From the NCBI RefSeq assembly GCF_002854065.1, contig NZ_CP024147.1: a DNA stretch of 64,000 nucleotides. One strand, given 5' to 3'. Source of the DNA: Escherichia coli (lineage in GTDB: Bacteria; Pseudomonadota; Gammaproteobacteria; Enterobacterales; Enterobacteriaceae). The position numbers were made by a program, and so were the translations under genes. The stretch's first letter is position 1, and each line of letters opens with the position of its first letter. This document shows positions 5,897 through 16,963 of the stretch, piece by piece. The notes beneath the pieces were generated by a model. It did not search any database, was not told the origin of the DNA, and saw only the letters and a list, made by a program, of their open reading frames with translations.

Positions 5897-6562
5897 ATGC
5901 CTGGAACGGGAAAAATGAAACATGTCAGTTTGACTCTGCAGGTTGAGAACGACCTGAAACATCAGCTTAGTATTGGCGCACTAAAACCTGGCGCACGCCT
6001 GATTACTAAAAATCTGGCGGAGCAATTAGGTATGAGTATTACACCTGTGCGTGAAGCATTATTACGTCTGGTTTCGGTGAATGCGCTTTCTGTCGCACCA
6101 GCGCAAGCATTTACAGTTCCGGAAGTGGGGAAACGTCAATTAGACGAAATCAATCGGATCCGCTACGAACTGGAATTAATGGCAGTTGCTCTGGCTGTTG
6201 AAAACCTCACCCCGCAAGACCTGGCGGAACTCCAGGAATTGCTCGAGAAATTACAGCAGGCGCAAGAAAAGGGCGACATGGAACAAATCATTAATGTAAA
6301 CAGGCTATTTCGCTTAGCGATTTTTCATCGCTCAAATATGCCCATCCTGTGTGAGATGATTGAGCAAATGTGGGTCAGGATGGGGCCTGGTTTACATTAT
6401 CTCTATGAAGCGATTAATCCAGCGGAATTACGGGAGCATATAGAAAACTATCATCTATTACTCGCCGCGTTAAAAGCAAAAGACAAAGAGGGATGCAGAC
6501 ATTGTCTTGCTGAAATTATGCAACAAAATATTGCTATTTTATACCAGCAATACAATCGTTAA
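5897..6562 (+). CDS. mcbR: GntR-family transcriptional regulator McbR (YncC)
   Basis: 221 aa from MPGTGKMKH; N-terminal winged HTH and FCD-type C-terminal domain. Confidence 0.85.
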   Translation: MPGTGKMKHVSLTLQVENDLKHQLSIGALKPGARLITKNLAEQLGMSITPVREALLRLVSVNALSVAPAQAFTVPEVGKRQLDEINRIRYELELMAVALAVENLTPQDLAELQELLEKLQQAQEKGDMEQIINVNRLFRLAIFHRSNMPILCEMIEQMWVRMGPGLHYLYEAINPAELREHIENYHLLLAALKAKDKEGCRHCLAEIMQQNIAILYQQYNR

Positions 6563-6567
6563 AGTAA

Positions 6568-6589
6568 ATGCCCGGCAAATACCGGGCAT
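6568..6589. terminator. bidirectional hairpin between convergent mcbR and yncD
   Basis: ATGCCCGG-caaat-ACCGGGCAT palindrome between the two stop codons. Confidence 0.5.
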
Positions 6590-6597
6590 CAAGGTAA

Positions 6598-8700
6598 TTA
6601 CTCAAATCGCCATGCGATATTCACGCCGACACCATAATTTCGCCCGGGCGCAGGTTCGTAATATCGCCCGTTTGACTCATTGACAATGACAGAACCAACG
6701 TATTCTTTATCGAATAAATTATCGACACGACCAAATAAGTCCACAGTTAAATTGTGGTAATTGTATTTATACCCGGTGAATAAGCCGACGAGAGTATAAG
6801 ACGGCGCTTTGGCCGTATTTTCATCATCTGCCATAATATCGCCCATATAACGCGCTTCCGTGCCTGCATACCAACCATCTTCCGGTACATAACCTATCGA
6901 CGCAAAGCCCATATTACGGGCGATCCCTGGCATCCGATTACCGTTACAATCCTGTTCGTTGCAAACATTGCTGCGATAGGTCGCATCAAGCCAGGTCCAG
7001 GACGCGTTTACGCGAAAATCTCCCGCGAAACGTTGATCCCATGCCAGTTCAGCGCCTTGACGACGGGTCTTTCCGGCATTTTTGTAAGTCGTACGCCCAC
7101 CGCTACTGCTATCGACAACAATTTCATCATCGGTGTCGGTCTGGAACAATGCGAGACTAAGCAGCCCATCACCAATACGCGTTTTACTGCCGATCTCAAT
7201 TGTATCGTTGGTGGATGGTTTTAAACCAAAGTTCATACCGCTTTGCCCATCAGCGCGATAAGACAGCTCATTAATCGTCGGCGTTTCAAAACCTCGACCA
7301 GCTGCCAGATAGATATTCCAGGCATCAGTCATTGCATATTTTAACGATCCGGCAGGTAGCCATTTGTGATAACTGGCATCACCACTGTCATCGCCGTTAC
7401 CCGGAGTAACGTAATGGTCGTTGGAATCAAACCACACGGAGCTGTAGCGCACGCCAGCATCCAGCGACAGTTTTTCGCTCAGCTGCCACTGCGTTTGTAA
7501 ATAGGGATCGACGTTCCACATCAGATTGCGTTCGTCGCGACGCAACTCACCTTTTTGCCCGTATTCCGGCACGCCGCTATTCAGGCGGAAATTATTGTAG
7601 CCCTTGCGGTTTTCACTCATGTTTTCGTAGTTCAGACCGGTGGTGAACGTGACTGGAACGCCCAGTTCACCTCGGTGTGTCCAGCGACTGTCTATCCCCT
7701 GGTAATGGCGTTGTAGAGTAATCACGCCACCCGCGTGTGACGGGTTAAGTTGTGGTGCCATCGGGATGGACTGGTATTGGGTCGTTTCACGTTCACCTGC
7801 GTACATCATTACACTCATATCATCGCTTGCGCTAAGACTACGCTCATAACGCAACCCAGCCTGAGTTTGCTTGATGGTTTTTCGCGTGTCGTACTGTTCA
7901 GCGCGTGGCGCTTGTTGTGGATTCGCCTTCCATTCTGCTTCGGTTAATCCACCAGGATCATCTGCTTTTATATCCACACTATTGAAAATCAGGCTTAATT
8001 TGCTGACTTCATCAATGCGTACGCCCAGTTTGGCATTGGCTAAATTTTTCTGTGCGCCACTATGGTCACGGTAGCCGTGGGTCGTAAAGCGCGTGGTTGA
8101 GACGGTGTAATCGACATCGCCAGGCTGTGTACCGTCGCCCATTGCGCCCGTTGCTTTCAGCCCATAGCGCCAGCTGCCAAAACTGCCGTAGTAACTGCTG
8201 GCTTCAATGGTTGGTGGCTGTTGCCCGGTCTGGGTGGTGACATTCATTACCCCGCCAGACGCGTTGCCATACAGGGCAGAGAAGGGGCCACGCAGCACTT
8301 CTACATTTTGCACACTGCTTAAATCGATGTTGGATGTTTGCCCTTGTCCGTCGGGCATGGTGGCGGGAATACCGTCTACATACAGGCGAATACCGCGAAT
8401 TCCGTAAGTGGAGCGGGAGCCAAATCCGCGAATCGACAGCTGTAAATCTTGCGCATAGTTCTGCCGGTTTTGTACCTGCAAACCAGGCACGCTGGTCAGA
8501 GATTCAGACAAGTTGATGCGCGGTGTTGCCAGGCGCATCTCCTCGCCATCCACCACGCTTACTGCTGCTGGCGTATCCAGCTCGGAAACCACCTGCGGCG
8601 CGGCACTGACAATCATGGTTTGTTCATCAGCGGCAAAAACGGCGGGGGAAAGGACAAGCAGCGCGGACAAAACGGTCTGTCGGGCGGAAAAAATCTTCAT
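6598..8700 (-). CDS. yncD: TonB-dependent outer membrane receptor YncD
   Basis: 700 aa; signal peptide, plug and beta-barrel; C-terminal aromatic residue (NIAWRFE). Confidence 0.9.
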   Translation of the reverse strand: MKIFSARQTVLSALLVLSPAVFAADEQTMIVSAAPQVVSELDTPAAVSVVDGEEMRLATPRINLSESLTSVPGLQVQNRQNYAQDLQLSIRGFGSRSTYGIRGIRLYVDGIPATMPDGQGQTSNIDLSSVQNVEVLRGPFSALYGNASGGVMNVTTQTGQQPPTIEASSYYGSFGSWRYGLKATGAMGDGTQPGDVDYTVSTTRFTTHGYRDHSGAQKNLANAKLGVRIDEVSKLSLIFNSVDIKADDPGGLTEAEWKANPQQAPRAEQYDTRKTIKQTQAGLRYERSLSASDDMSVMMYAGERETTQYQSIPMAPQLNPSHAGGVITLQRHYQGIDSRWTHRGELGVPVTFTTGLNYENMSENRKGYNNFRLNSGVPEYGQKGELRRDERNLMWNVDPYLQTQWQLSEKLSLDAGVRYSSVWFDSNDHYVTPGNGDDSGDASYHKWLPAGSLKYAMTDAWNIYLAAGRGFETPTINELSYRADGQSGMNFGLKPSTNDTIEIGSKTRIGDGLLSLALFQTDTDDEIVVDSSSGGRTTYKNAGKTRRQGAELAWDQRFAGDFRVNASWTWLDATYRSNVCNEQDCNGNRMPGIARNMGFASIGYVPEDGWYAGTEARYMGDIMADDENTAKAPSYTLVGLFTGYKYNYHNLTVDLFGRVDNLFDKEYVGSVIVNESNGRYYEPAPGRNYGVGVNIAWRFE

Positions 8701-10061: not shown

Positions 10062-10125
10062 ACGAACAAAGAGCACCTCGTCAGCAATATGAATTTGCCC
10101 GGCTCGTAGCCGGGCAATTTTGCAA

Positions 10126-11625
10126 TTAACTCGCCGTTTCAGGCTTAAATGCAATATCCTGTTTTTCTTTATCTACTTCGACTACGGGCGCAGTGCTGTG
10201 AATTTCAGCAACGCGTTTGCGCACACCAAACCAGCCTATAACCAGCAGAATACCGATAATCGGCAGCGCCGCGATAGTATAAGTCCCGTTCGGGTAATCG
10301 AACGCCATCAGCACAAGGACACTCAGTAAAAACAGTAATGTCAGCCAGGAAGTGAAGGGCGCGCCAGGCAGTTTAAAACTGACATCCGCTGCTTTGCCTT
10401 CTTTAATCGCTTTACGCAGGCGCATCTGGCACACGATGATAAACGCCCATGAAGCGATGATTCCCAGCGACGCGAAGTTCAACACAATCTCAAATACGCG
10501 CGACGGCACCAGATAGTTGAGGAATACGCCGACGACATACACAACCAGTGTCGCCAGAATCCCGGCATACGGCACATGCTGACGACTCATTTTCGCCATA
10601 AAACTCGGTGCGGAACCGCCCATCGCCATTGAGCGCAGAATACGTCCGGTGCAGTACAGACCTGAATTCAGGCTGGAGAGGGCAGCGGTCAGCACCACAA
10701 TGTTCATAATGCTGCCGATATATGGCACACCCAGTTTAGAGAAAAACGTCACGAACGGACTTTGCCCCGCCTGATACGCGCTCCACGGCAATAACATAAC
10801 CAGCAACACCACGGAGCCGACGTAAAACAGGCCAATACGCCAAATCACACTGTTAATCGCTTTAGGCACCATGGTCTGCGGATCTTTACATTCTCCGGCA
10901 GCTGTACCCACCATTTCAATGGAGGCAAAAGCAAACACTACGCCCTGAATCAACACCAGCGCAGGCAGCAAACCGTGGGGGAAGAAGCCGCCATTATCGG
11001 TGATTAAATGAAAGCCAGTGGTGTTGCCATCCAGCGGCTGACCACTACCGAGGAACACCGTACCCACGACCAAAAAGGTCACAATGGCGAGCACTTTAAT
11101 AAGCGCAAACCAGAACTCCATCTCGGCGAACCATTTCACGCCGATCATATTCATGGTGCCAACGATGGTAAGTGCAGCGAGCGCAAAGACCCACTGCGGC
11201 ACGCCGCCAAACGCACCCCAGTAATGCATATACAGAGCGACGGCGGTAATATCAACAATCCCGGTCATCGCCCAGTTGATGAAGTACATCCAACCGGCAA
11301 CATAAGCGGCTTTCTCACCCAGAAACTCACGGGCATAGGAGACAAAGCTGCCACTGGAAGGGCGATGCAATACCAGCTCACCCAACGCGCGCAGAATAAA
11401 AAACGAAAACAGGCCGCAGATTAAATAGACCAGTGCCAGCGCCGGCCCCGCCATTTGCAGTCGGGCTCCCGCGCCTAAAAACAAACCAGTACCAATCGCA
11501 CCGCCAATGGCGATCATCTGCACCTGACGATTGCCCATTGCTTTGTGATATCCCTCTTCGTGGGCATTAAGCCAGCGGCGTTTCGCAGCGTGTTGCTCTG
11601 AAGTGTCGGTGTTGTGTTTACTCAT
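10126..11625 (-). CDS. ansP: L-asparagine permease (APC family)
   Basis: Start MSKHNTDTSEQHAAKRRWLN; 499 aa; 12-TM amino acid permease. Confidence 0.9.
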   Translation of the reverse strand: MSKHNTDTSEQHAAKRRWLNAHEEGYHKAMGNRQVQMIAIGGAIGTGLFLGAGARLQMAGPALALVYLICGLFSFFILRALGELVLHRPSSGSFVSYAREFLGEKAAYVAGWMYFINWAMTGIVDITAVALYMHYWGAFGGVPQWVFALAALTIVGTMNMIGVKWFAEMEFWFALIKVLAIVTFLVVGTVFLGSGQPLDGNTTGFHLITDNGGFFPHGLLPALVLIQGVVFAFASIEMVGTAAGECKDPQTMVPKAINSVIWRIGLFYVGSVVLLVMLLPWSAYQAGQSPFVTFFSKLGVPYIGSIMNIVVLTAALSSLNSGLYCTGRILRSMAMGGSAPSFMAKMSRQHVPYAGILATLVVYVVGVFLNYLVPSRVFEIVLNFASLGIIASWAFIIVCQMRLRKAIKEGKAADVSFKLPGAPFTSWLTLLFLLSVLVLMAFDYPNGTYTIAALPIIGILLVIGWFGVRKRVAEIHSTAPVVEVDKEKQDIAFKPETAS

Positions 11626-12599
11626 TGCGCTCCCTGATTGCTTTAATGAAAAAAGTCTTTTATGTCGCCATGAACAATGTTTATTCATCCTGGCGATGAC
11701 AAGATTCACCATTATTCTTTATGGGTATAACTGTCGGCGCAGAATCCTACCTTTTATCGTGTAACGATGCAAAATAATCCCACTATAAATGTGAGGGGAT
11801 AAAGGCAGCTGGCGACAAAATAGCAACCTGATGAAATTATGACGGAAACAACCACTATTGGTTCGATGATACTCGACTGTCGCCGACTCTTTAGCCAATC
11901 GTTTGTCGCTCTGAGCGCAAGTGGTTGCAGTGGACACTGGTGTGGTTGGTTTTCGCTGATTATCATTGAATAGTGAGGGACCAGCGCATGAGTGGTTTCA
12001 GGGGTAATACGCCAAATACCAATACAATTGCTGATTAGAAATGCCAGTTGTCGAGGTCACAGAAAGTGCAAAAAATGTAAGAGTGATATCGGGTGACAAT
12101 TGTGCTATTGCCCAGCAGAAATTTTTTAAATTAGTACTGTTCCAGGGGCATTACAAACCTTAAAACATTACTTCAATATAATTAATGTGTATATCATTCT
12201 TGATATTAATTTATGAAGTGAATTTGATATATTCCGAATTCTTAATTTACATTACTAATGTATGGGACATAACGTTAAGATGGCTATGTGCAGATTAAGA
12301 TATCAGGGTGGGGCGGTAGCGTTTACAGATATTAATTAATTGATGAGAGCTATGTTATCCGCACAATCATTTACATCAGCTATTGATATTGAAGATAGAT
12401 AAATAAATATGCTGAGAATTAATGTTAAGGAATCGTAATGGGAAACTTTGATAACTTGCTTTGATTTCATTCTCTATGAAGATGATGTCATCAACACTGC
12501 ATAAAGTGGAAATATTGAACATCAAAGAGAACCATATTTAATAAATAATAACAGAGCGTTTGTGTTTATCTGAAAAATATCATTTCCAGGAGGTAGGAT

Positions 12600-13130
12600 A
12601 TGTCATTAAGGAGAATGACATCTGGTGAATTAGCATTGGCCAGATCGATTTTTGAAAATACAATTGATTATAGTAAGGTATGGATCCACAATGAAAAATA
12701 TTTGCCGGGTCAAGGGGAAAGAACAGCGATGACCCCAAACGGGGAAATGTATTATCCTGATGCTGTTTATAGTTCAGATTATTCATCGCAAACAATGCCT
12801 GGTGATCGTGAAACAGTAGCAGGTGCTTCTCACTTGTTTATTCATGAAATGATGCATGTTTGGCAATATCAGAAAGGGTATGCAGTTAAGTTGCGTGGTT
12901 TATTTTCCTGGGCGGCAAATTATCATTACGATCTTAATTTACAGTCAATTTCTTCTTATTCCATGGAACAACAAGCATCTATAGTTGCTGATTATTGGCT
13001 ATTGATTAACTATGGACTGGTGGCTGATTTGGCAAATGTTAACTATGTAGGTGATACAACTGAATCCGTTAACACTCTATCGGAAAAATACAAAAAGGTG
13101 CTTAATTTATTTCCTGCGGGTGTCATATGA
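12600..13130 (+). CDS. HExxH zincin-like protein, DUF4157-like (putative effector/toxin)
   Basis: 176 aa; strong AGGAGGTAGG ribosome-binding site; no signal peptide; motif string IDYSKVWIHNE...ERTAMTPNGEMYYP...HLFIHEMMHVWQYQ resembles my recollection of the DUF4157 consensus (DLSxVRVH...AFTxG...LLAHELxHVxQQ); AT-rich context. Confidence 0.55.
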   Translation: MSLRRMTSGELALARSIFENTIDYSKVWIHNEKYLPGQGERTAMTPNGEMYYPDAVYSSDYSSQTMPGDRETVAGASHLFIHEMMHVWQYQKGYAVKLRGLFSWAANYHYDLNLQSISSYSMEQQASIVADYWLLINYGLVADLANVNYVGDTTESVNTLSEKYKKVLNLFPAGVI

Positions 13131-13483
13131 AGAGATTCTTTTTGTTTTTCTTTTTGTCGGGATGCACTGTTGGTGATTATGTTCGCCCATTGTTACCCGG
13201 TAATGTATATTTACAAGATGGACGGGTTTGTTCAAAACCAGACGATGGAGGTATTATTTCAAATTATATTTTATATGAAGGTAAATATGGCAATGCAATA
13301 AAGCTGAAAAGAGTAACAGGTCAGTTCGACCCCGTATGTATTGACATAAGTGAGCTATCTTCAGATGTTATTTATATCGGGCAATATATGCTCTCTTCCG
13401 GAAGTAAAAAAGAATACTATGGTTTTAGAATAATTAGATCCGGAGTACGTATTTTAAGACTTGATGATAACCATATCAAATAA
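13127..13483 (+). CDS. small lipoprotein, translationally coupled partner (putative immunity/inhibitor)
   Basis: 118 aa; ATGA start/stop overlap with the upstream gene; lipobox FLSGC (signal MKRFFLFFFLSGC). Confidence 0.55.
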   Translation: MKRFFLFFFLSGCTVGDYVRPLLPGNVYLQDGRVCSKPDDGGIISNYILYEGKYGNAIKLKRVTGQFDPVCIDISELSSDVIYIGQYMLSSGSKKEYYGFRIIRSGVRILRLDDNHIK

Positions 13484-13703
13484 CAGATTAAAAATTTTAT
13501 TAGTTTCATTAATGTGCTTTAGGTGAATGTTTTCACCAGGTTAACATGACGGTGCATTCTTCAAGGCATATATGGTTGATAGTATCTTCAGTAGCTCGCA
13601 TAAGTATTGAGATGTTTTACGCCAGTTACGAATATATTGCATATTTTATTCTCTGTAAGATTTCTTATTAGCACTTAGCCATTTCTAGTTAAAAGGATTA
13701 ATT

Positions 13704-15191
13704 ATGAGTTTTGCAGCTACAGATTATCCATCCGGCGCACTAACTGGATCGGGTACACATAACGTGACTTTGAGCGGCAGCGCAGTTCCTGATGGAATGT
13801 TACTGTTTGCAAGCTTAGGGGGTACAGAAACAGTAGGGGAACTATTTACTTATTCTATTAAATTAAAAACTCCTGACATCCTGAACCTGGGCTATGTTTC
13901 CCCCGCCGCAAACCTGCAGCTCAAACCGATGGTGGGCAAAGATCTGTGCGTCCATATCGAACTGGATGGCGGCGGAAAACGTTATATCAGCGGGCTGGTG
14001 ACGGCGGCACGCGTGGCTGGTCATCAAGGACGTTCGGTGGTGTATGAACTGCGGCTCGAACCGTGGTTAAAAATACTGACCCACACTAGTGACTACAAAG
14101 CGTTTCAGAATAAAAACGTGGTGGACATCCTGGATGAGGTACTGGATGAGTATCCCTGGCCAGTGGAAAAACGGCTGGTGGAAAATTATCCGACTCGCGC
14201 CTGGCAGATGCAGTACGGTGAAACAGATTTCGCTTTTATTCAGCGCCTGATGCAGGAGTGGGGTATCTACTGGTGGTTTGAGCACAGCGAGAACAGTCAC
14301 ACGTTAGTGCTGGCTGATGCCATTAATGTCCACAAGGCATGCGCAGATTCGCCGCTGGTGTGTTATTACCAGAAAGGGCTGAAACTGGACAAGGAGTTTA
14401 TCCATACCATCACAGCAAATGAAAGTCTGCGCAGCGGACAGTGGGTGCTGAATGATTTCGACTTTATGAAGCCGCGTTCACTGCTGAAGAGCACCGTGGC
14501 TAATCCGCGTGAAACCGGCCTTGCTGAATATGAGCACTACGAATGGCCGGGAGATTACTTCACAAAGAGTGAAGGTGAAATGCTGACACGCATTCGCATG
14601 GAAGAACAGCGTAGCCCCGGTAGTCGGGTACAGGGCAGCGGCAATATTCGTACCCTGATGACAGGTTTTACCTTCACCCTGGAAAACTATCCGACAGCCG
14701 AAGTGAACCGGGAATATCTGCTGGTACAGACCACGCTATTTATACAGGACAATGCGCAACACAGCGGCCAGGAGCAGCATTTCTCTTACTCAACCAGCTT
14801 TGAACTGCATCCCACCAGCGAAGTTTACCGCCCACAACGAACCCTGAGCAAACCCCACACTAAAGGCCCGCAGAGTGCCATCGTCACCGGCCCGGCAGGG
14901 CAGGAAATCTGGACAGATAAATATGGCCGGGTGAAAGTTCAGTTTGGCTGGGATCGTTACGGTAAGAATGACGAAAACAGCTCCTGCTGGGTCCGTGTCA
15001 GTTATCCGTGGGCTGGTAAAGGATTCGGTGGCATTCAGATCCCGCGTATTGGTCAAGAAGTACTGGTGGATTTCAAAAACGGTGATCCGGATTTACCGAT
15101 AATCGTTGGGCGTACCTACAACCAGGACACCATGCCACCGTGGGGACTACCTGAACGGCGTGTACGACAGCACGGGGCACCTGCTGCGTGA
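13704..15191 (+). pseudogene. vgrG: vgrG, N-terminal portion only (T6SS spike protein), truncated
   Basis: 495 aa ORF containing the VgrG gp27/gp5 signature ([39 protein letters not shown]); the frame ends shortly after this motif, well short of a full-length VgrG. Confidence 0.75.
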
Positions 15192-15298
15192 GTTTGCTTA
15201 CGACGAAAACCACTGCATGACGCTGCACCGCCAGCCGGGCGGCGAAGGGTATTATTACCAGTGGGGCTGGTATGACGGTCCGGATGATGCGGCGTGGC
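15145..15298 (+). other. Rhs/YD-repeat-like remnant fused out of frame to the vgrG end
   Basis: Alternative frame reads [44 protein letters not shown], a YD-repeat-like pattern; short and without a proper start. Confidence 0.35.
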
Positions 15299-15513
15299 GG
15301 GCACCCCTCCGAAATCTTCACCGTGACACCCCGCCCGGTATCAAATCCGGCCTCTTTCAGCCAGTCGCCCTTAAGGTTCAGGCTGGGGTGTCGTGAGTAG
15401 TACGTGGTCATGTAGGTTTTGCTGTTTATGTGGCGGGCTCTGACATAGCCGACTTTATAGCGTCGCTGTGTTTTGGAAATGGTGACTTCTGGCGTAATAT
15501 CGTGTTCAGCCAT
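15286..15513 (-). pseudogene. SymE-like (AbrB-fold) type I toxin, N-terminal ~76 aa, 3-prime end replaced
   Basis: AGGAG ribosome-binding site plus ATG at 15513; [34 protein letters not shown] aligns with SymE (...[38 protein letters not shown]); after EGC the frame runs antisense into the Rhs/vgrG remnant. Confidence 0.5.
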
Positions 15514-15826
15514 GATTAACTACTCCTGTTAGTTGCTTGTGGTGAGCGGCTGTTACAGGCGGCCACCTGTAGCAGTCGCGTTAAATATCAACGCATTACC
15601 TTCATTACCTGCTTCATCTTCTCCTGCGTGATCGCCATATCCAGAATACGGCAGATCACTTCCTGATCGTCTGCTTTAAGCTCAGGGAAAGATCATCAGA
15701 AGTTCACTTTTTGTACTAAATAATTCGCATTTTATGTTTAAAAATTGAGATATTCCTCATTACCTGAAGCTGTTTTTTATTGCTTATACATGATCAAATA
15801 CTCCTTACATAATTAAGGAGAACAAA

Positions 15827-16963
15827 ATGGAACTTAAAAAATTGATGGAACATATTTCTATTACCCCCGATTACAGACAAGTCTGGAAAGTGGAACATAA
15901 ATTATCAGATATTCTACTGTTGACTATTTGTGCCGTTATTTCGGGTGCAGAAGGTTGGGAAGATATAGAGGATTTTGGGGAAACACATCTCGATTTTTTG
16001 AAGCAATATGGTGATTTTGAAAATGGTATTCCTGTTCACGATACCATTGCCAGAGTTGTATCCTGTATCAGCCCTACAAAATTTCATGAGTGCTTTATTA
16101 ACTGGATGCGTGATTGTCATTCTTCAGATGATAAAGACGTCATTGCAATTGATGGAAAAACGCTCCGGCATTCTTATGATAAGAGTCGCCGCAGGGGAGC
16201 GATTCATGTCATTAGTGCGTTCTCAACAATGCACAGTCTGTTCATCGGACAGATCAAGACGGATGAGAAATCTAATGAGATTACAGCTATCCCTGAACTT
16301 CTTAACATGCTGGATATTAAAGGGAAAATTATCACAACTGATACGATGGGTTGCCAGAAAGATATCGCAGAGAAGATACAAAAACAGGGCGGTGATTATT
16401 TATTCGCGGTAAAAGGTAACCAGGGGCGGCTTAATAAAGCCTTTGAGGAAAAATTTCCGCTGAAAGAATTAAATAATCCAGAGCATGACAGTTACGCAAT
16501 GAGTGAAAAGAGTCACGGCAGAGAAGAAATCCGTCTTCATATTGTTTGCGATGTCCCTGATGAACTTATTGATTTCACGTTTGAATGGAAATGGCTGAAG
16601 AAATTATGCGTGGCAGTCTCCTTTCGGTCCATAATAGCAGAACAAAAGAAAGAGCCAGAAATGACGGTCAGATATTATATCAGTTCTGATGATTTAACCC
16701 CAGAGAAGTTCGCCAGAGCAATCCGAAACCACTGGCACGTGGAGAATAAGCTGCACTGGCGTCTGGACGTGGTAATGAATGAAGACGACTGCAAAATAAG
16801 AAGAGGAAATGCAGCAGAATTATTTTCAGGGATACGGCACATTGCTATTAATATTTTGACGAATGATAAGGTATTCAAGGCAGGGTTAAGACGTAAGATG
16901 CGAAAAGCAGCCATGGACAGAAACTATCTGGCGTCAGTCCTTGCGGGGAGCGGGCTTTCGTAA
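15827..16963 (+). mobile_element. ISAs1-family transposase (Rhs-associated H-repeat protein, YdcC/YhhI-like), intact ORF
   Basis: 378 aa ORF with AAGGAGAACAAA ribosome-binding site; H-repeat protein hallmarks ([12 protein letters not shown]..., ...[32 protein letters not shown]...); inverted-repeat ends not delimited. Confidence 0.85.

Follow-up and report, generated by a model that had tools for sequence, protein, structure and literature searches.

Two overlapping genes in the 64,000-nucleotide stretch of Escherichia coli DNA analysed here (the window) very probably make up a T6SS antibacterial effector/immunity module of the Tpe-Tpi type, in the stand-alone 'cargo' form and most likely left as a relic at this place. 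This reading draws on sequence comparison, on predicted structures and on analogy with pairs tested elsewhere. The Tpe family, its stand-alone enterobacterial form and the immunity by a lipoprotein have already been published (PMC6899460, PMC12992299). The coordinates of the pair and of the surrounding island are collected in Table 1. A sequence-only reading of this DNA had described a coupled HExxH protein and lipoprotein, and both open reading frames, the ATGA overlap, the HEMMH motif with two flanking peptides, the lack of a signal peptide on the first product and the lipobox on the second were all recovered at their positions.

Table 1. Features of the gene pair and its island in the window.
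Feature	Position	Strand	Basis
AT-rich accessory islet bearing the pair	11822..13700	.	composition profile; blastn vs K-12
Shine-Dalgarno AGGAGGT	12588..12594	+	5 bases 5' of effector ATG; read from sequence
tpe-like effector gene	12600..13130	+	ORF call; 176 aa, 20 kDa
HExxH codons H82-E83-M-M-H86 (zinc-binding, catalytic)	12843..12857	+	invariant in 36 homologues
E123 codon (in MEQQ), predicted third gluzincin zinc ligand	12966..12968	+	invariant; aligned to VgrG2b E983
tpi-like immunity gene (putative), 118-aa lipoprotein	13127..13483	+	ORF; start codon within ATGA overlap
Lipoprotein signal peptide, MKRFFLFFFLSG before C	13127..13165	+	sequence; Cys13 = acylated residue
vgrG remnant, first ~482/665 codons	13704..15151	+	TIGR03361 E 2.5e-146
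Rhs toxin gene internal fragment, 153 nt, fused to vgrG stump	15149..15301	+	blastn
symE-family toxin remnant, island right edge	15304..15513	-	strain 100416 RefSeq annotation mapped; ORF list
ISAs1-family (H-repeat, ydcC) transposase, island end before pptA	15827..16963	+	ORF; annotated in 100416, K-12

The probable effector and its partner lipoprotein

HEMMH occupies residues 82-86 of the first protein, and the peptides IDYSKVWIH and AMTPNGEMYYP were confirmed in the translation. Its N-terminus, MSLRRMTSGELALARS, lacks a hydrophobic stretch, and neither a signal peptide nor another export signal was recognised. A phmmer search of the PDB returned 6H56_A, the VgrG2b domain, as the sole match at E<=10 (E 2e-20), with effector residues 4-138 aligned to residues 99-233 of the chain; identity to the VgrG2b domain is 31-32% across ~160 residues. 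In the phmmer alignment, H82, E83, H86 and E123 of the effector pair with H935, E936, H939 and E983 of the VgrG2b zinc site as described in PMC6899460. The AF2 model of the effector (pLDDT 90.3, pTM 0.89), which is a predicted structure, again has 6H56 as its top Foldseek match in the PDB (E 4e-9, probability 1.00, TM 0.63). No other match is significant, the second-best having an E of 1.2.

The effector has 144 homologues spread over the Enterobacterales, and 21 residues are invariant among the 36 that were aligned. With more than 140 homologues that keep such a set of residues, and with a lipoprotein gene downstream in relatives, both ORFs are genuine genes and not chance reading frames. Sequence and predicted fold both place the 176-aa protein in the Tpe / VgrG2b C-terminal family of gluzincin effectors, as one of its stand-alone forms. 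This homology to the effector domain of VgrG2b, whose structure has been solved, bears out the earlier suggestion of an HExxH zincin toxin. No NCBIfam model matched the effector. The RefSeq label is 'type IV secretion protein Rhs' for the effector and 'hypothetical protein' for the lipoprotein.

The ATGA at 13127-13130 is common to both genes, providing the effector stop and the lipoprotein start (translational coupling). The leader of the second protein has a basic n-region, a hydrophobic core and the lipobox FLSG followed by the acylated Cys, with Thr at +2. This Thr, where no Asp is found, predicts sorting to the outer membrane; the +2 rule, as well as an S. arizonae orthologue enriched in the outer membrane, is described in PMC6899460.

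Against the NF045617 model ('putative T6SS immunity periplasmic lipoprotein') the 118-aa protein scores 30.7 bits (E 2.8e-7), short of the curated cut-off of 43 bits. The other E. coli allele reaches 34.3 bits and that from Citrobacter 31.1, a further five effector-homologue partners lie at 52-102 bits, and the six genome-derived downstream lipoproteins span 31-102 bits. A Pfam scan of the lipoprotein at E<=10 gave no match, DUF7480 (PF24295) included; precomputed PF24295 matches exist for the partners of 140-154 aa (loci L005, L008 and L010) and for none of those of 117-126 aa. L10, G12, C13, G16, D17, C35 and C71 are invariant among 10 aligned lipoproteins, some of which pass NF045617, and the G-D motif just past the acylated Cys together with two cysteines is common to the seven aligned lipoproteins from outside the window. 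Aligned with accepted members by hhalign, the lipoprotein obtains 96.6% probability and E 5.7e-10 when signal peptides are included, and 42% probability and P 2.6e-4 for the mature parts alone, in unchanged register.

A lipoprotein gene follows or overlaps the effector gene in all six genome-derived relatives and in eight relatives on viral contigs; at 13 other viral-contig effector loci, a regex scan detected no downstream lipoprotein. With the lipoprotein as query, a word-index search returned E. coli alleles only (85-97% identity), and phmmer with this single sequence found no credible distant relative among 1.84 billion representatives. Its phmmer matches in proteins of 600-3000 aa were short, multi-stretch and compositional-looking, and were discounted; a PDB sequence search gave matches at chance level (E>0.5). 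A linker-fused AF2 model of the effector and the mature lipoprotein (paired alignment, 15 pairs) reached pLDDT 70.3 and pTM 0.56 with no confident interface, and Foldseek of this model gave generic Fn3/Ig-like matches for the lipoprotein part (E ~6e-3).

Although it stays below the curated cut-off, the second protein has the lipobox, the G-D motif, the two cysteines and the gene position in common with Tpi lipoproteins. We assign it to the Tpi type (NF045617/DUF7480), as a probable but divergent relation of the cognate immunity lipoproteins. The existence of a low-scoring subgroup implies that present family models under-call such proteins.

Island decay and distribution

The GC content is 0.30-0.38 over ~12000 to 13700, compared with 0.50-0.55 on either side, and DNA in common with K-12 stops at 11821 (blastn). 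K-12 carries ansP-yncG-yncH-rhsE' at the same locus, in line with the sequence-only reading; the AT-rich islet next to a truncated vgrG, also described there, is evident from the GC profile and from a TIGR03361 match that covers only part of the gene. A promoter and terminator scan of 11700-13750 gave a number of sites no higher than in shuffled sequence.

In an intact E. coli island (L001) the gene order is E-I-vgrG-Eag-PAAR-Rhs-RhsI. In the window, vgrG starts 220 bp downstream of the pair and is cut short: its ORF extends from 15151 to 15191 into unrelated sequence, the blastn match to the intact island of strain KCJ3K291 ends at 15151, and in strain 100416, which is near-identical, the RefSeq annotation makes the gene a pseudogene. 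The rhs fragment fused to it is 98.7% identical (blastn) to positions 14988-15140 of L001. Deletion has removed the gene for the Eag/DcrB chaperone and most of the PAAR-Rhs gene; the half of the island meant for delivery has been destroyed, and what is left of it is the short rhs fragment along with an ISAs1 element. Taken as a series, such islands show stages of decay: intact, with a vgrG stop codon, with an IS-split effector and the immunity gene kept, and with a vgrG-Rhs deletion.

The closest complete genome, CUWW06, contains the island at 100% identity. Its T6SS cluster at aspV consists of tssA, tssG, tssF, tssE and a tagJ pseudogene only, without tssB/C, hcp, clpV, tssK/L/M and vgrG, and its metZWV site is empty. 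A second near copy of the window's vgrG type was found neither in CUWW06 nor in strain 100416. With vgrG cut, Eag and Rhs deleted and a mere T6SS remnant in this genome, the module looks orphaned, and is most likely a relic; the T6SS part of this conclusion draws on two canonical sites of CUWW06. The T6SS link and the orphaned state that had been proposed are upheld by these findings. The chromosome of KCJ3K291 is rearranged, and its T6SS cluster was not located by synteny. A match in E. coli IH5 (H8) consists of scrambled gene fragments of ~500 bp, an evident assembly artefact, and was ignored.

The pair is accessory: of 5426 complete E. coli genomes, 223 (~4%) contain at least 80% of 12000-13700, and the neighbouring vgrG type occurs in 234 E. 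coli genomes. A conserved housekeeping operon is ruled out by this frequency and by the absence of the pair from K-12. Both ORFs are intact in the three genomes (3/3) that have the window arrangement. Measured against the KCJ3K291 allele, dN/dS is 0.17 for the effector, a value that stems from ~10 substitutions and speaks of the past rather than of current use, and 0.60 for the immunity gene.

Among relatives, Citrobacter farmeri repeats the gene order of the intact E. coli island where a T6SS cluster ends, and further effector relatives adjoin vgrG, hcp or tssBC; in Atlantibacter and Serratia the link is to hcp and not to vgrG. The Dryocola pair stands by itself, no T6SS gene lying within 8 kb of it. 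Relatives also occur in P2-like prophages between tail-completion genes and the baseplate gene V, one lies in a lambdoid prophage and another just past a lysis cassette, and 61 plasmid records contain an effector homologue. A Cor-like match of a prophage-borne lipoprotein was set aside as signal-peptide similarity only. Searches with both window proteins matched no PADLOC family at E<=0.1 and nothing in PHROGs; an anti-phage defence system is ruled out, as there is neither a PADLOC match nor supporting context. In the literature, nothing specific was found on this E. coli locus or on the prophage-borne copies.

Relation to tested pairs and alternative readings

VgrG2b-C-ter and Tpe1 of Acinetobacter baylyi are toxic in the periplasm only, their active-site mutants are inert, and a downstream envelope protein immunises; members from enterobacteria occur on their own and have a lipoprotein for immunity (PMC6899460). 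T6SS-dependent secretion and active-site-dependent periplasmic toxicity are established for homologues (PMC6899460, PMC12992299). The earlier proposal of a toxin with a periplasm-facing lipoprotein accords with these experimentally validated stand-alone pairs, and there is no call for the alternative offered with it, a self-contained two-gene system without a known function.

We compared the window pair, by published description, with SARI_02727/SARI_02726 from SPI-20 of Salmonella enterica subsp. arizonae, for which a 2026 study provides competition and periplasmic toxicity assays and an AF3 ipTM of 0.87 (PMC12992299). Like SARI_02727 (189 aa), the window effector is a stand-alone protein of ~180 aa with HExxH, a distal Glu and structural likeness to 6H56; like SARI_02726, the window lipoprotein is encoded downstream in an overlapping bicistron, is of the NF045617 type and has no Asp at +2. 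Both pairs come from an enterobacterial host and are linked to T6SS genes. They differ in that SARI_02726 has 154 aa and passes DUF7480/NF045617, whereas the window lipoprotein is shorter and stays below the cut-off, and in that a complete T6SS cluster surrounds the SARI pair, whereas the window pair is upstream of a decayed vgrG-Eag-Rhs island at ansP-pptA (rhsE).

With VgrG2b and PA0261 of Pseudomonas aeruginosa (6H56) the window pair has in common the gluzincin fold, the HExxH + E ligands, the logic of a periplasm-acting toxin, and an immunity gene directly downstream with a periplasm-exposed product. In VgrG2b, however, the domain forms the covalently attached C-terminal part of an 'evolved' VgrG and follows DUF2345 and TTR, while the window effector stands apart from VgrG as cargo; PA0261 has a signal peptide and is described as periplasmic, while the enterobacterial immunity proteins are lipoproteins (PMC6899460). 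VgrG2b also has a reported anti-eukaryotic role, of which there is no evidence for the window effector. Tpe1-Tpi1 (ACIAD0053/0054, A. baylyi ADP1) resembles the window pair in that Tpe1, too, is a T6SS metallopeptidase of this family carried as separate cargo, and its immunity gene lies downstream. As far as Ringel et al. (2017) are reported in PMC6899460, Tpi1 is anchored in the inner membrane by an N-terminal transmembrane helix and not by lipid, and Tpe1 is toxic to E. coli at low salt only.

By homology with these tested relatives, we infer the following mechanism. The 20-kDa gluzincin, with a predicted zinc site at H82, H86 and E123 and E83 as catalytic residue, is made with no signal peptide and would be harmless in the cytoplasm of its producer. 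Given an intact island, the spike from the neighbouring vgrG (Hcp in some relatives) would carry it by non-covalent binding, and it would be fired into the periplasm of a neighbour, where zinc-dependent proteolysis of envelope targets would lead to blebbing and lysis. From the coupled second gene would come a beta-sandwich lipoprotein, anchored in the outer membrane and facing the periplasm, that binds and neutralises toxin arriving from sister cells. At the present locus, the immunity gene may still protect against E. coli strains that fire the same toxin, and the toxin gene would be an intact but undeliverable passenger, barring a compatible spike elsewhere in the genome. Against this main reading stand the position of the pair upstream of vgrG, cargo effectors being usually downstream, and those relatives that are without T6SS neighbours (Dryocola, prophages, plasmids). 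The sub-cut-off NF045617 score of the lipoprotein, its blank Pfam scan and lack of credible distant relatives in phmmer, the low hhalign probability for its mature part and the fused AF2 model also count against it.

The family itself has been viewed differently. The sequence-only reading had used the label DUF4157 (PF13699, now eCIS_core), a short HExxH-centred zincin segment, and according to Wood et al. (2019) relatives are 'frequently annotated as DUF4157' (PMC6899460). Pfam applied to the 36 aligned effector homologues gave sub-threshold matches only, to PF13699, DUF6782 and M91; 20 of the 36 reach PF13699, with E between 0.005 and 0.1 (best 4.9e-3) and none at E<=0.001. The window effector itself has no Pfam match at E<=10, eCIS genes are absent nearby, and the VgrG2b-C-ter match is specific and far stronger. 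That the effector should be a strict PF13699 protein, kin to eCIS cargo or polymorphic toxins and not Tpe, is hardly credible; going by its sequence matches, its precise family is Tpe / VgrG2b-C-ter, and the DUF4157 label does not hold. A different objection accepts the toxin and its antidote and makes them a mobile module that works without a T6SS, the adjacency to vgrG in E. coli being incidental. One such module would be a 'moron' of prophages or plasmids, with a peptidase that is freed at lysis or attacks the lysogen's own envelope and a lipoprotein that serves as self-protection or exclusion factor. The relatives in the P2-like slot, in the lambdoid prophage and after the lysis cassette, the plasmid records, the lone Dryocola pair, and homologues in Sphingomonadaceae, which rarely bear a T6SS (Wood et al., PMC6899460), speak for it. 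Yet the effector is devoid of a signal peptide or export signal, tested homologues are T6SS-delivered and toxic in the periplasm only, the E. coli pair co-travels with one vgrG type as the nearly equal genome counts indicate, mobile carriage of effector/immunity cassettes is compatible with use by a host T6SS, and PHROGs and PADLOC are blank for both window proteins; we regard this explanation as improbable.

Nor do we give much credence to the pair being an active weapon still, its effector loaded in trans on VgrG or Hcp of a T6SS beyond the 64-kb window. Effectors carried by Hcp are generally reported in a size range into which 20 kDa fits, and hcp-linked relatives exist in Atlantibacter and Serratia; both ORFs are intact behind a strong Shine-Dalgarno sequence, and the effector dN/dS indicates purifying selection between lineages. 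Against this, the aspV cluster of CUWW06 is gutted and metZWV is empty there, no other near vgrG copy exists in CUWW06 or 100416, and the few substitutions behind the dN/dS record history rather than current use. A broader proposal regards the Tpe/Tpi cassette as an autonomous mobile unit, the short lipoprotein as a class of its own and the pair beside the dead vgrG as maintained and no relic. It would mean that prophages and megaplasmids have captured the cassette repeatedly, P2-like phages among them at a fixed slot beside the baseplate spike gene V; the ~118-aa lipoproteins of E. coli and Citrobacter would form a separate immunity specificity class missed by current models; and the pair would be kept through use in trans or through a T6SS-independent role (exclusion, protection, lysis release). 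We hold this to be unlikely, and retain the Tpe-Tpi cargo module in a relic state as the preferred reading.

The window pair leaves the understanding of T6SS biology unchanged. What the assignment does offer is a specific replacement for the uninformative or wrong annotation of both genes, and it gives the pair a place as an E. coli member of the family at the rhsE/ansP-pptA hotspot, in a T6SS auxiliary island.

Gene pair and effector family

The two open reading frames picked out in the sequence-only reading are both present as described there, as are the HEMMH motif of the first product (residues 82-86), the ATGA overlap, which couples translation of the two genes, the lipoprotein signal, the AT-rich islet and the vgrG remnant. 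A strong Shine-Dalgarno sequence precedes the first (effector) gene, whose product has no hydrophobic stretch at its N-terminus. The product of the second (immunity) gene starts with a lipoprotein signal peptide, MKRFFLFFFLSG, followed by Cys and, at +2, Thr. GC content dips to 0.30-0.38 over approximately 12000-13700, against 0.50-0.55 on both flanks.

Features of the decayed island in the window and of prophage-borne cassettes
Feature	Location	Strand	Remarks
Shine-Dalgarno of effector gene	12588-12594	+	AGGAGGT
Effector ORF	12600-13130	+	176 aa
Immunity ORF	13127-13483	+	118 aa
vgrG, N-terminal three quarters	ORF 13704-15191	+	TIGR03361, E 2.5e-146
End of vgrG homology	15151		nt 1448 of 1998; joined to rhs fragment
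Internal rhs fragment	15149-15301		153 nt, fused to vgrG
symE-family remnant	15304-15513		
isrA Hfq-binding sRNA, full-length	15314-15442	+	RF01385, 119 bits vs gathering score 51
SymR, sub-threshold match	15508-15582	+	39 bits vs 61
Prophage cassettes	L013 5917-6917		also L014, L018, L020, L021, L031
Further prophage cassettes	L017 5980-6920; L010/L016 8001-8958		

Profile searches against Pfam and NCBIfam returned no match for the effector. Its earlier assignment by eye to DUF4157 was not borne out by Pfam. Among 36 effector relatives, 20 reach the corresponding model PF13699 (now eCIS_core), but only with E-values of 0.005-0.1; no relative gets to E<=0.001. Relatives frequently carry a DUF4157 annotation (PMC6899460), and the lead was thus a reasonable one. 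A phmmer search of PDB sequences yielded a single strong match, 6H56 (E 2e-20, residues 4-138), which is the effector domain of Pseudomonas aeruginosa VgrG2b, a thermolysin-like gluzincin, MA(E), whose structure was solved by Wood et al. in 2019 (PMC6899460). The AlphaFold2 model of the effector, built from 36 homologues, is confident (pLDDT 90.3, pTM 0.89); searched against the PDB with Foldseek, it recovered 6H56 as the sole significant match (E 4e-9, TM 0.63, 31% identity), every other match lying at E>1. The zinc ligands of VgrG2b are H935, H939 and E983, and its catalytic residue is E936 (PMC6899460). In the phmmer alignment they correspond to H82, H86, E123 and E83 of the effector, all four invariant across a 36-sequence effector alignment. 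Judged by homology, this conserved zinc site and the predicted fold, the effector belongs to the Tpe/VgrG2b-C-ter family of T6SS zinc metallopeptidases, a correct and far stronger assignment than DUF4157. The name that RefSeq/PGAP gives to the effectors of this family, 'type IV secretion protein Rhs', is wrong on both counts, type IV and Rhs.

The C-terminal domain of VgrG2b kills from the periplasm, causing blebbing, rounding and lysis, and is harmless in the cytoplasm; the mutants E936A, H935A and H939A are inert (PMC6899460). No peptidoglycan hydrolase activity was found, and Wood et al. suggested that the toxin frees lipoproteins from membranes. The immunity protein, which is periplasmic and binds the toxin, is the product of the downstream gene PA0261. 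Wood et al. proposed the name Tpe-Tpi for the family, after A. baylyi Tpe1/Tpi1, and described VgrG-fused, PAAR-fused and stand-alone 'cargo' forms (PMC6899460). Among the last, SARI_02727 (189 aa) and SARI_02726 (a 154-aa lipoprotein; DUF7480, NF045617) of S. arizonae were validated as an effector/immunity pair in 2026 by competition assays and by periplasmic toxicity with partial rescue, with an AF3 ipTM of 0.87 (PMC12992299). Like SARI_02727, the effector studied here is stand-alone and has a lipoprotein partner.

The partner lipoprotein

The immunity protein, whose gene carries the RefSeq label 'hypothetical protein' in E. coli, is far more divergent than the effector. A word-index search retrieved only E. 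coli alleles (85-97% identity), an exhaustive phmmer search of 1.84 billion representatives gave no credible distant relative, and Pfam gave no match. The NCBIfam model NF045617 ('putative T6SS immunity periplasmic lipoprotein') matches it at E 2.8e-7 and 30.7 bits, short of the cut-off of 43 bits; in this, in its Pfam silence and in its length it differs from SARI_02726.

As an independent test, the downstream genes of six effector homologues were taken from Citrobacter, Enterobacter, Atlantibacter, Serratia, Dryocola and a Kosakonia-like contig. All six encode lipoproteins (117-154 aa) and overlap or abut the effector gene; they score 31-102 bits with NF045617, five of them above the cut-off. 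Together with the E. coli alleles they share invariant columns, namely the lipobox (L, G, C13), a G16-D17 motif, C35 and C71. A profile-profile comparison of the E. coli/Citrobacter group with the group passing NF045617 gave 96.6% probability, and 42% (P 2.6e-4) in an unchanged register once signal peptides were removed. Given that it is a lipoprotein with the conserved motifs in a conserved gene position, and given the profile comparison, we treat the immunity protein as a putative divergent, short-form Tpi-type lipoprotein that would work as the family does and that lies below the curated threshold.

According to the Lol sorting rule, a +2 residue other than Asp leads to outer-membrane anchoring. 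None of 17 partners examined has Asp at +2, and the immunity lipoprotein is hence predicted to be anchored in the outer membrane with its body towards the periplasm. [quoted passage not shown] In a fused AF2 model of both proteins (pTM 0.56), the immunity part is all-beta and Fn3/Ig-like at moderate confidence, and is not confidently placed relative to the effector.

Island decay and distribution in E. coli

DNA shared with K-12 stops at 11821. In strain KCJ3K291 the intact island reads ansP, effector, immunity, vgrG (665 aa), DcrB/Eag chaperone, PAAR-Rhs toxin, Rhs immunity, symE, pptA. In the window the pair is linked to vgrG and the delivery genes are truncated; the rhs fragment is followed by a symE remnant and an ISAs1 element. 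The isrA match lies antisense to the symE remnant and is followed by the SymR match, which points to a type I toxin-antitoxin remnant surviving at the right edge of the island. In K-12, ansP-yncG-yncH-rhsE' occupies the same locus. Ahead of the effector gene, 122 nt (12204-12325) are 77% identical to K-12 DNA between yncH and the rhsE pseudogene (NC_000913.3 1527491-1527614). This suggests that the K-12 rhsE locus descends from such an island, minus the effector, immunity, vgrG and Eag genes and 5' rhs.

A comparison across E. coli genomes, which had been proposed earlier, identified the pair as accessory: at least 80% of 12000-13700 is present in 223 of 5426 complete genomes, and this vgrG type in nearly the same number (234). 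The window arrangement is common to two listed complete genomes, CUWW06 and strain 100416, and three records in all match it at >=99% identity. Other decay states are a vgrG with an internal stop codon (Z1323HEC0475) and an IS1 insertion upstream (CUWW06). In A31 (NZ_CP028744.1, 3861-6043), ISAs1 splits the effector gene, and the immunity gene and full-length vgrG are intact; this strain exemplifies immunity kept without toxin. The chromosome end of IH5 (NZ_CP168949.1, 5165251-5178330) is a mosaic of unrelated gene fragments of ~200-600 bp (flagellar, T6SS, phage, pdu and others), with part of the pair among them, and is almost certainly an assembly artefact in the public record.

CUWW06 is the closest genome to the window. 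Of its aspV-linked T6SS cluster (NZ_CP182139.1, 1082053-1091444) only tssA, tssG, tssF, tssE and a tagJ pseudogene are left; beyond them come IS3, an rhs fragment and symE, a decay of the same style as that at the ansP locus. Its metZWV site is empty. Comparison of the window alleles with those of KCJ3K291 gave dN/dS values of 0.17 (effector), 0.60 (immunity gene) and 0.05 (N-terminal part of vgrG), all from small counts (approximately 13 substitutions in the immunity comparison, with L001, i.e. KCJ3K291, 10103-10465). At face value, such a contrast between a conserved toxin and a rapidly evolving immunity partner is the usual one. The two immunity alleles differ in signal-peptide length (proteins of 118 versus 120 aa).

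Mobile copies and proposed role

In Citrobacter farmeri a full T6SS cluster ends with genes in the identical effector-immunity-vgrG-Eag-Rhs order, and other effector relatives adjoin tssBC remnants or hcp genes. Tpe/Tpi-like cassettes of an HExxH protein and a lipoprotein also occur inside prophages. In P2-like (Peduovirus) prophages the pair is encoded on the opposite strand, with the tail-completion genes on one side and the baseplate spike/assembly gene V on the other, and megablast of P2-like phages against the cassette-bearing stretch gave similarity in two separate pieces. A lambdoid prophage copy is flanked by the NinB/Q region and a cI-like repressor, and a third setting directly follows a holin-lysozyme-Rz cassette. 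Among the cultured enterobacterial phages of INPHARED, none has such a cassette. Effector homologues are further encoded in 61 plasmid records, mostly megaplasmids of Pantoea, Cronobacter and Rahnella. On the 72.6-kb Escherichia marmotae plasmid NZ_CP099346.1, the homologue (6534-7031) has a neighbour annotated 'putative T6SS immunity periplasmic lipoprotein'.

By analogy with the tested homologues, the effector would be carried by the spike or tube of a T6SS and injected into the periplasm of neighbouring cells, killing them by zinc-dependent proteolysis of envelope targets, and the outer-membrane-anchored lipoprotein would bind and block kin-derived toxin. In this strain the toxin would be undeliverable, since the spike gene, the chaperone, PAAR-Rhs and apparently the T6SS are missing. 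The immunity gene by itself would still be of obvious value. The pair probably persists as a relic, use in trans being less likely.

The family, its stand-alone enterobacterial form, lipoprotein immunity and antibacterial function are already published, and the pair adds an E. coli member, currently mis-annotated, in a decayed auxiliary island. What remains new is the short, sub-threshold immunity subgroup and the fact that prophages and plasmids have apparently captured the cassette repeatedly.
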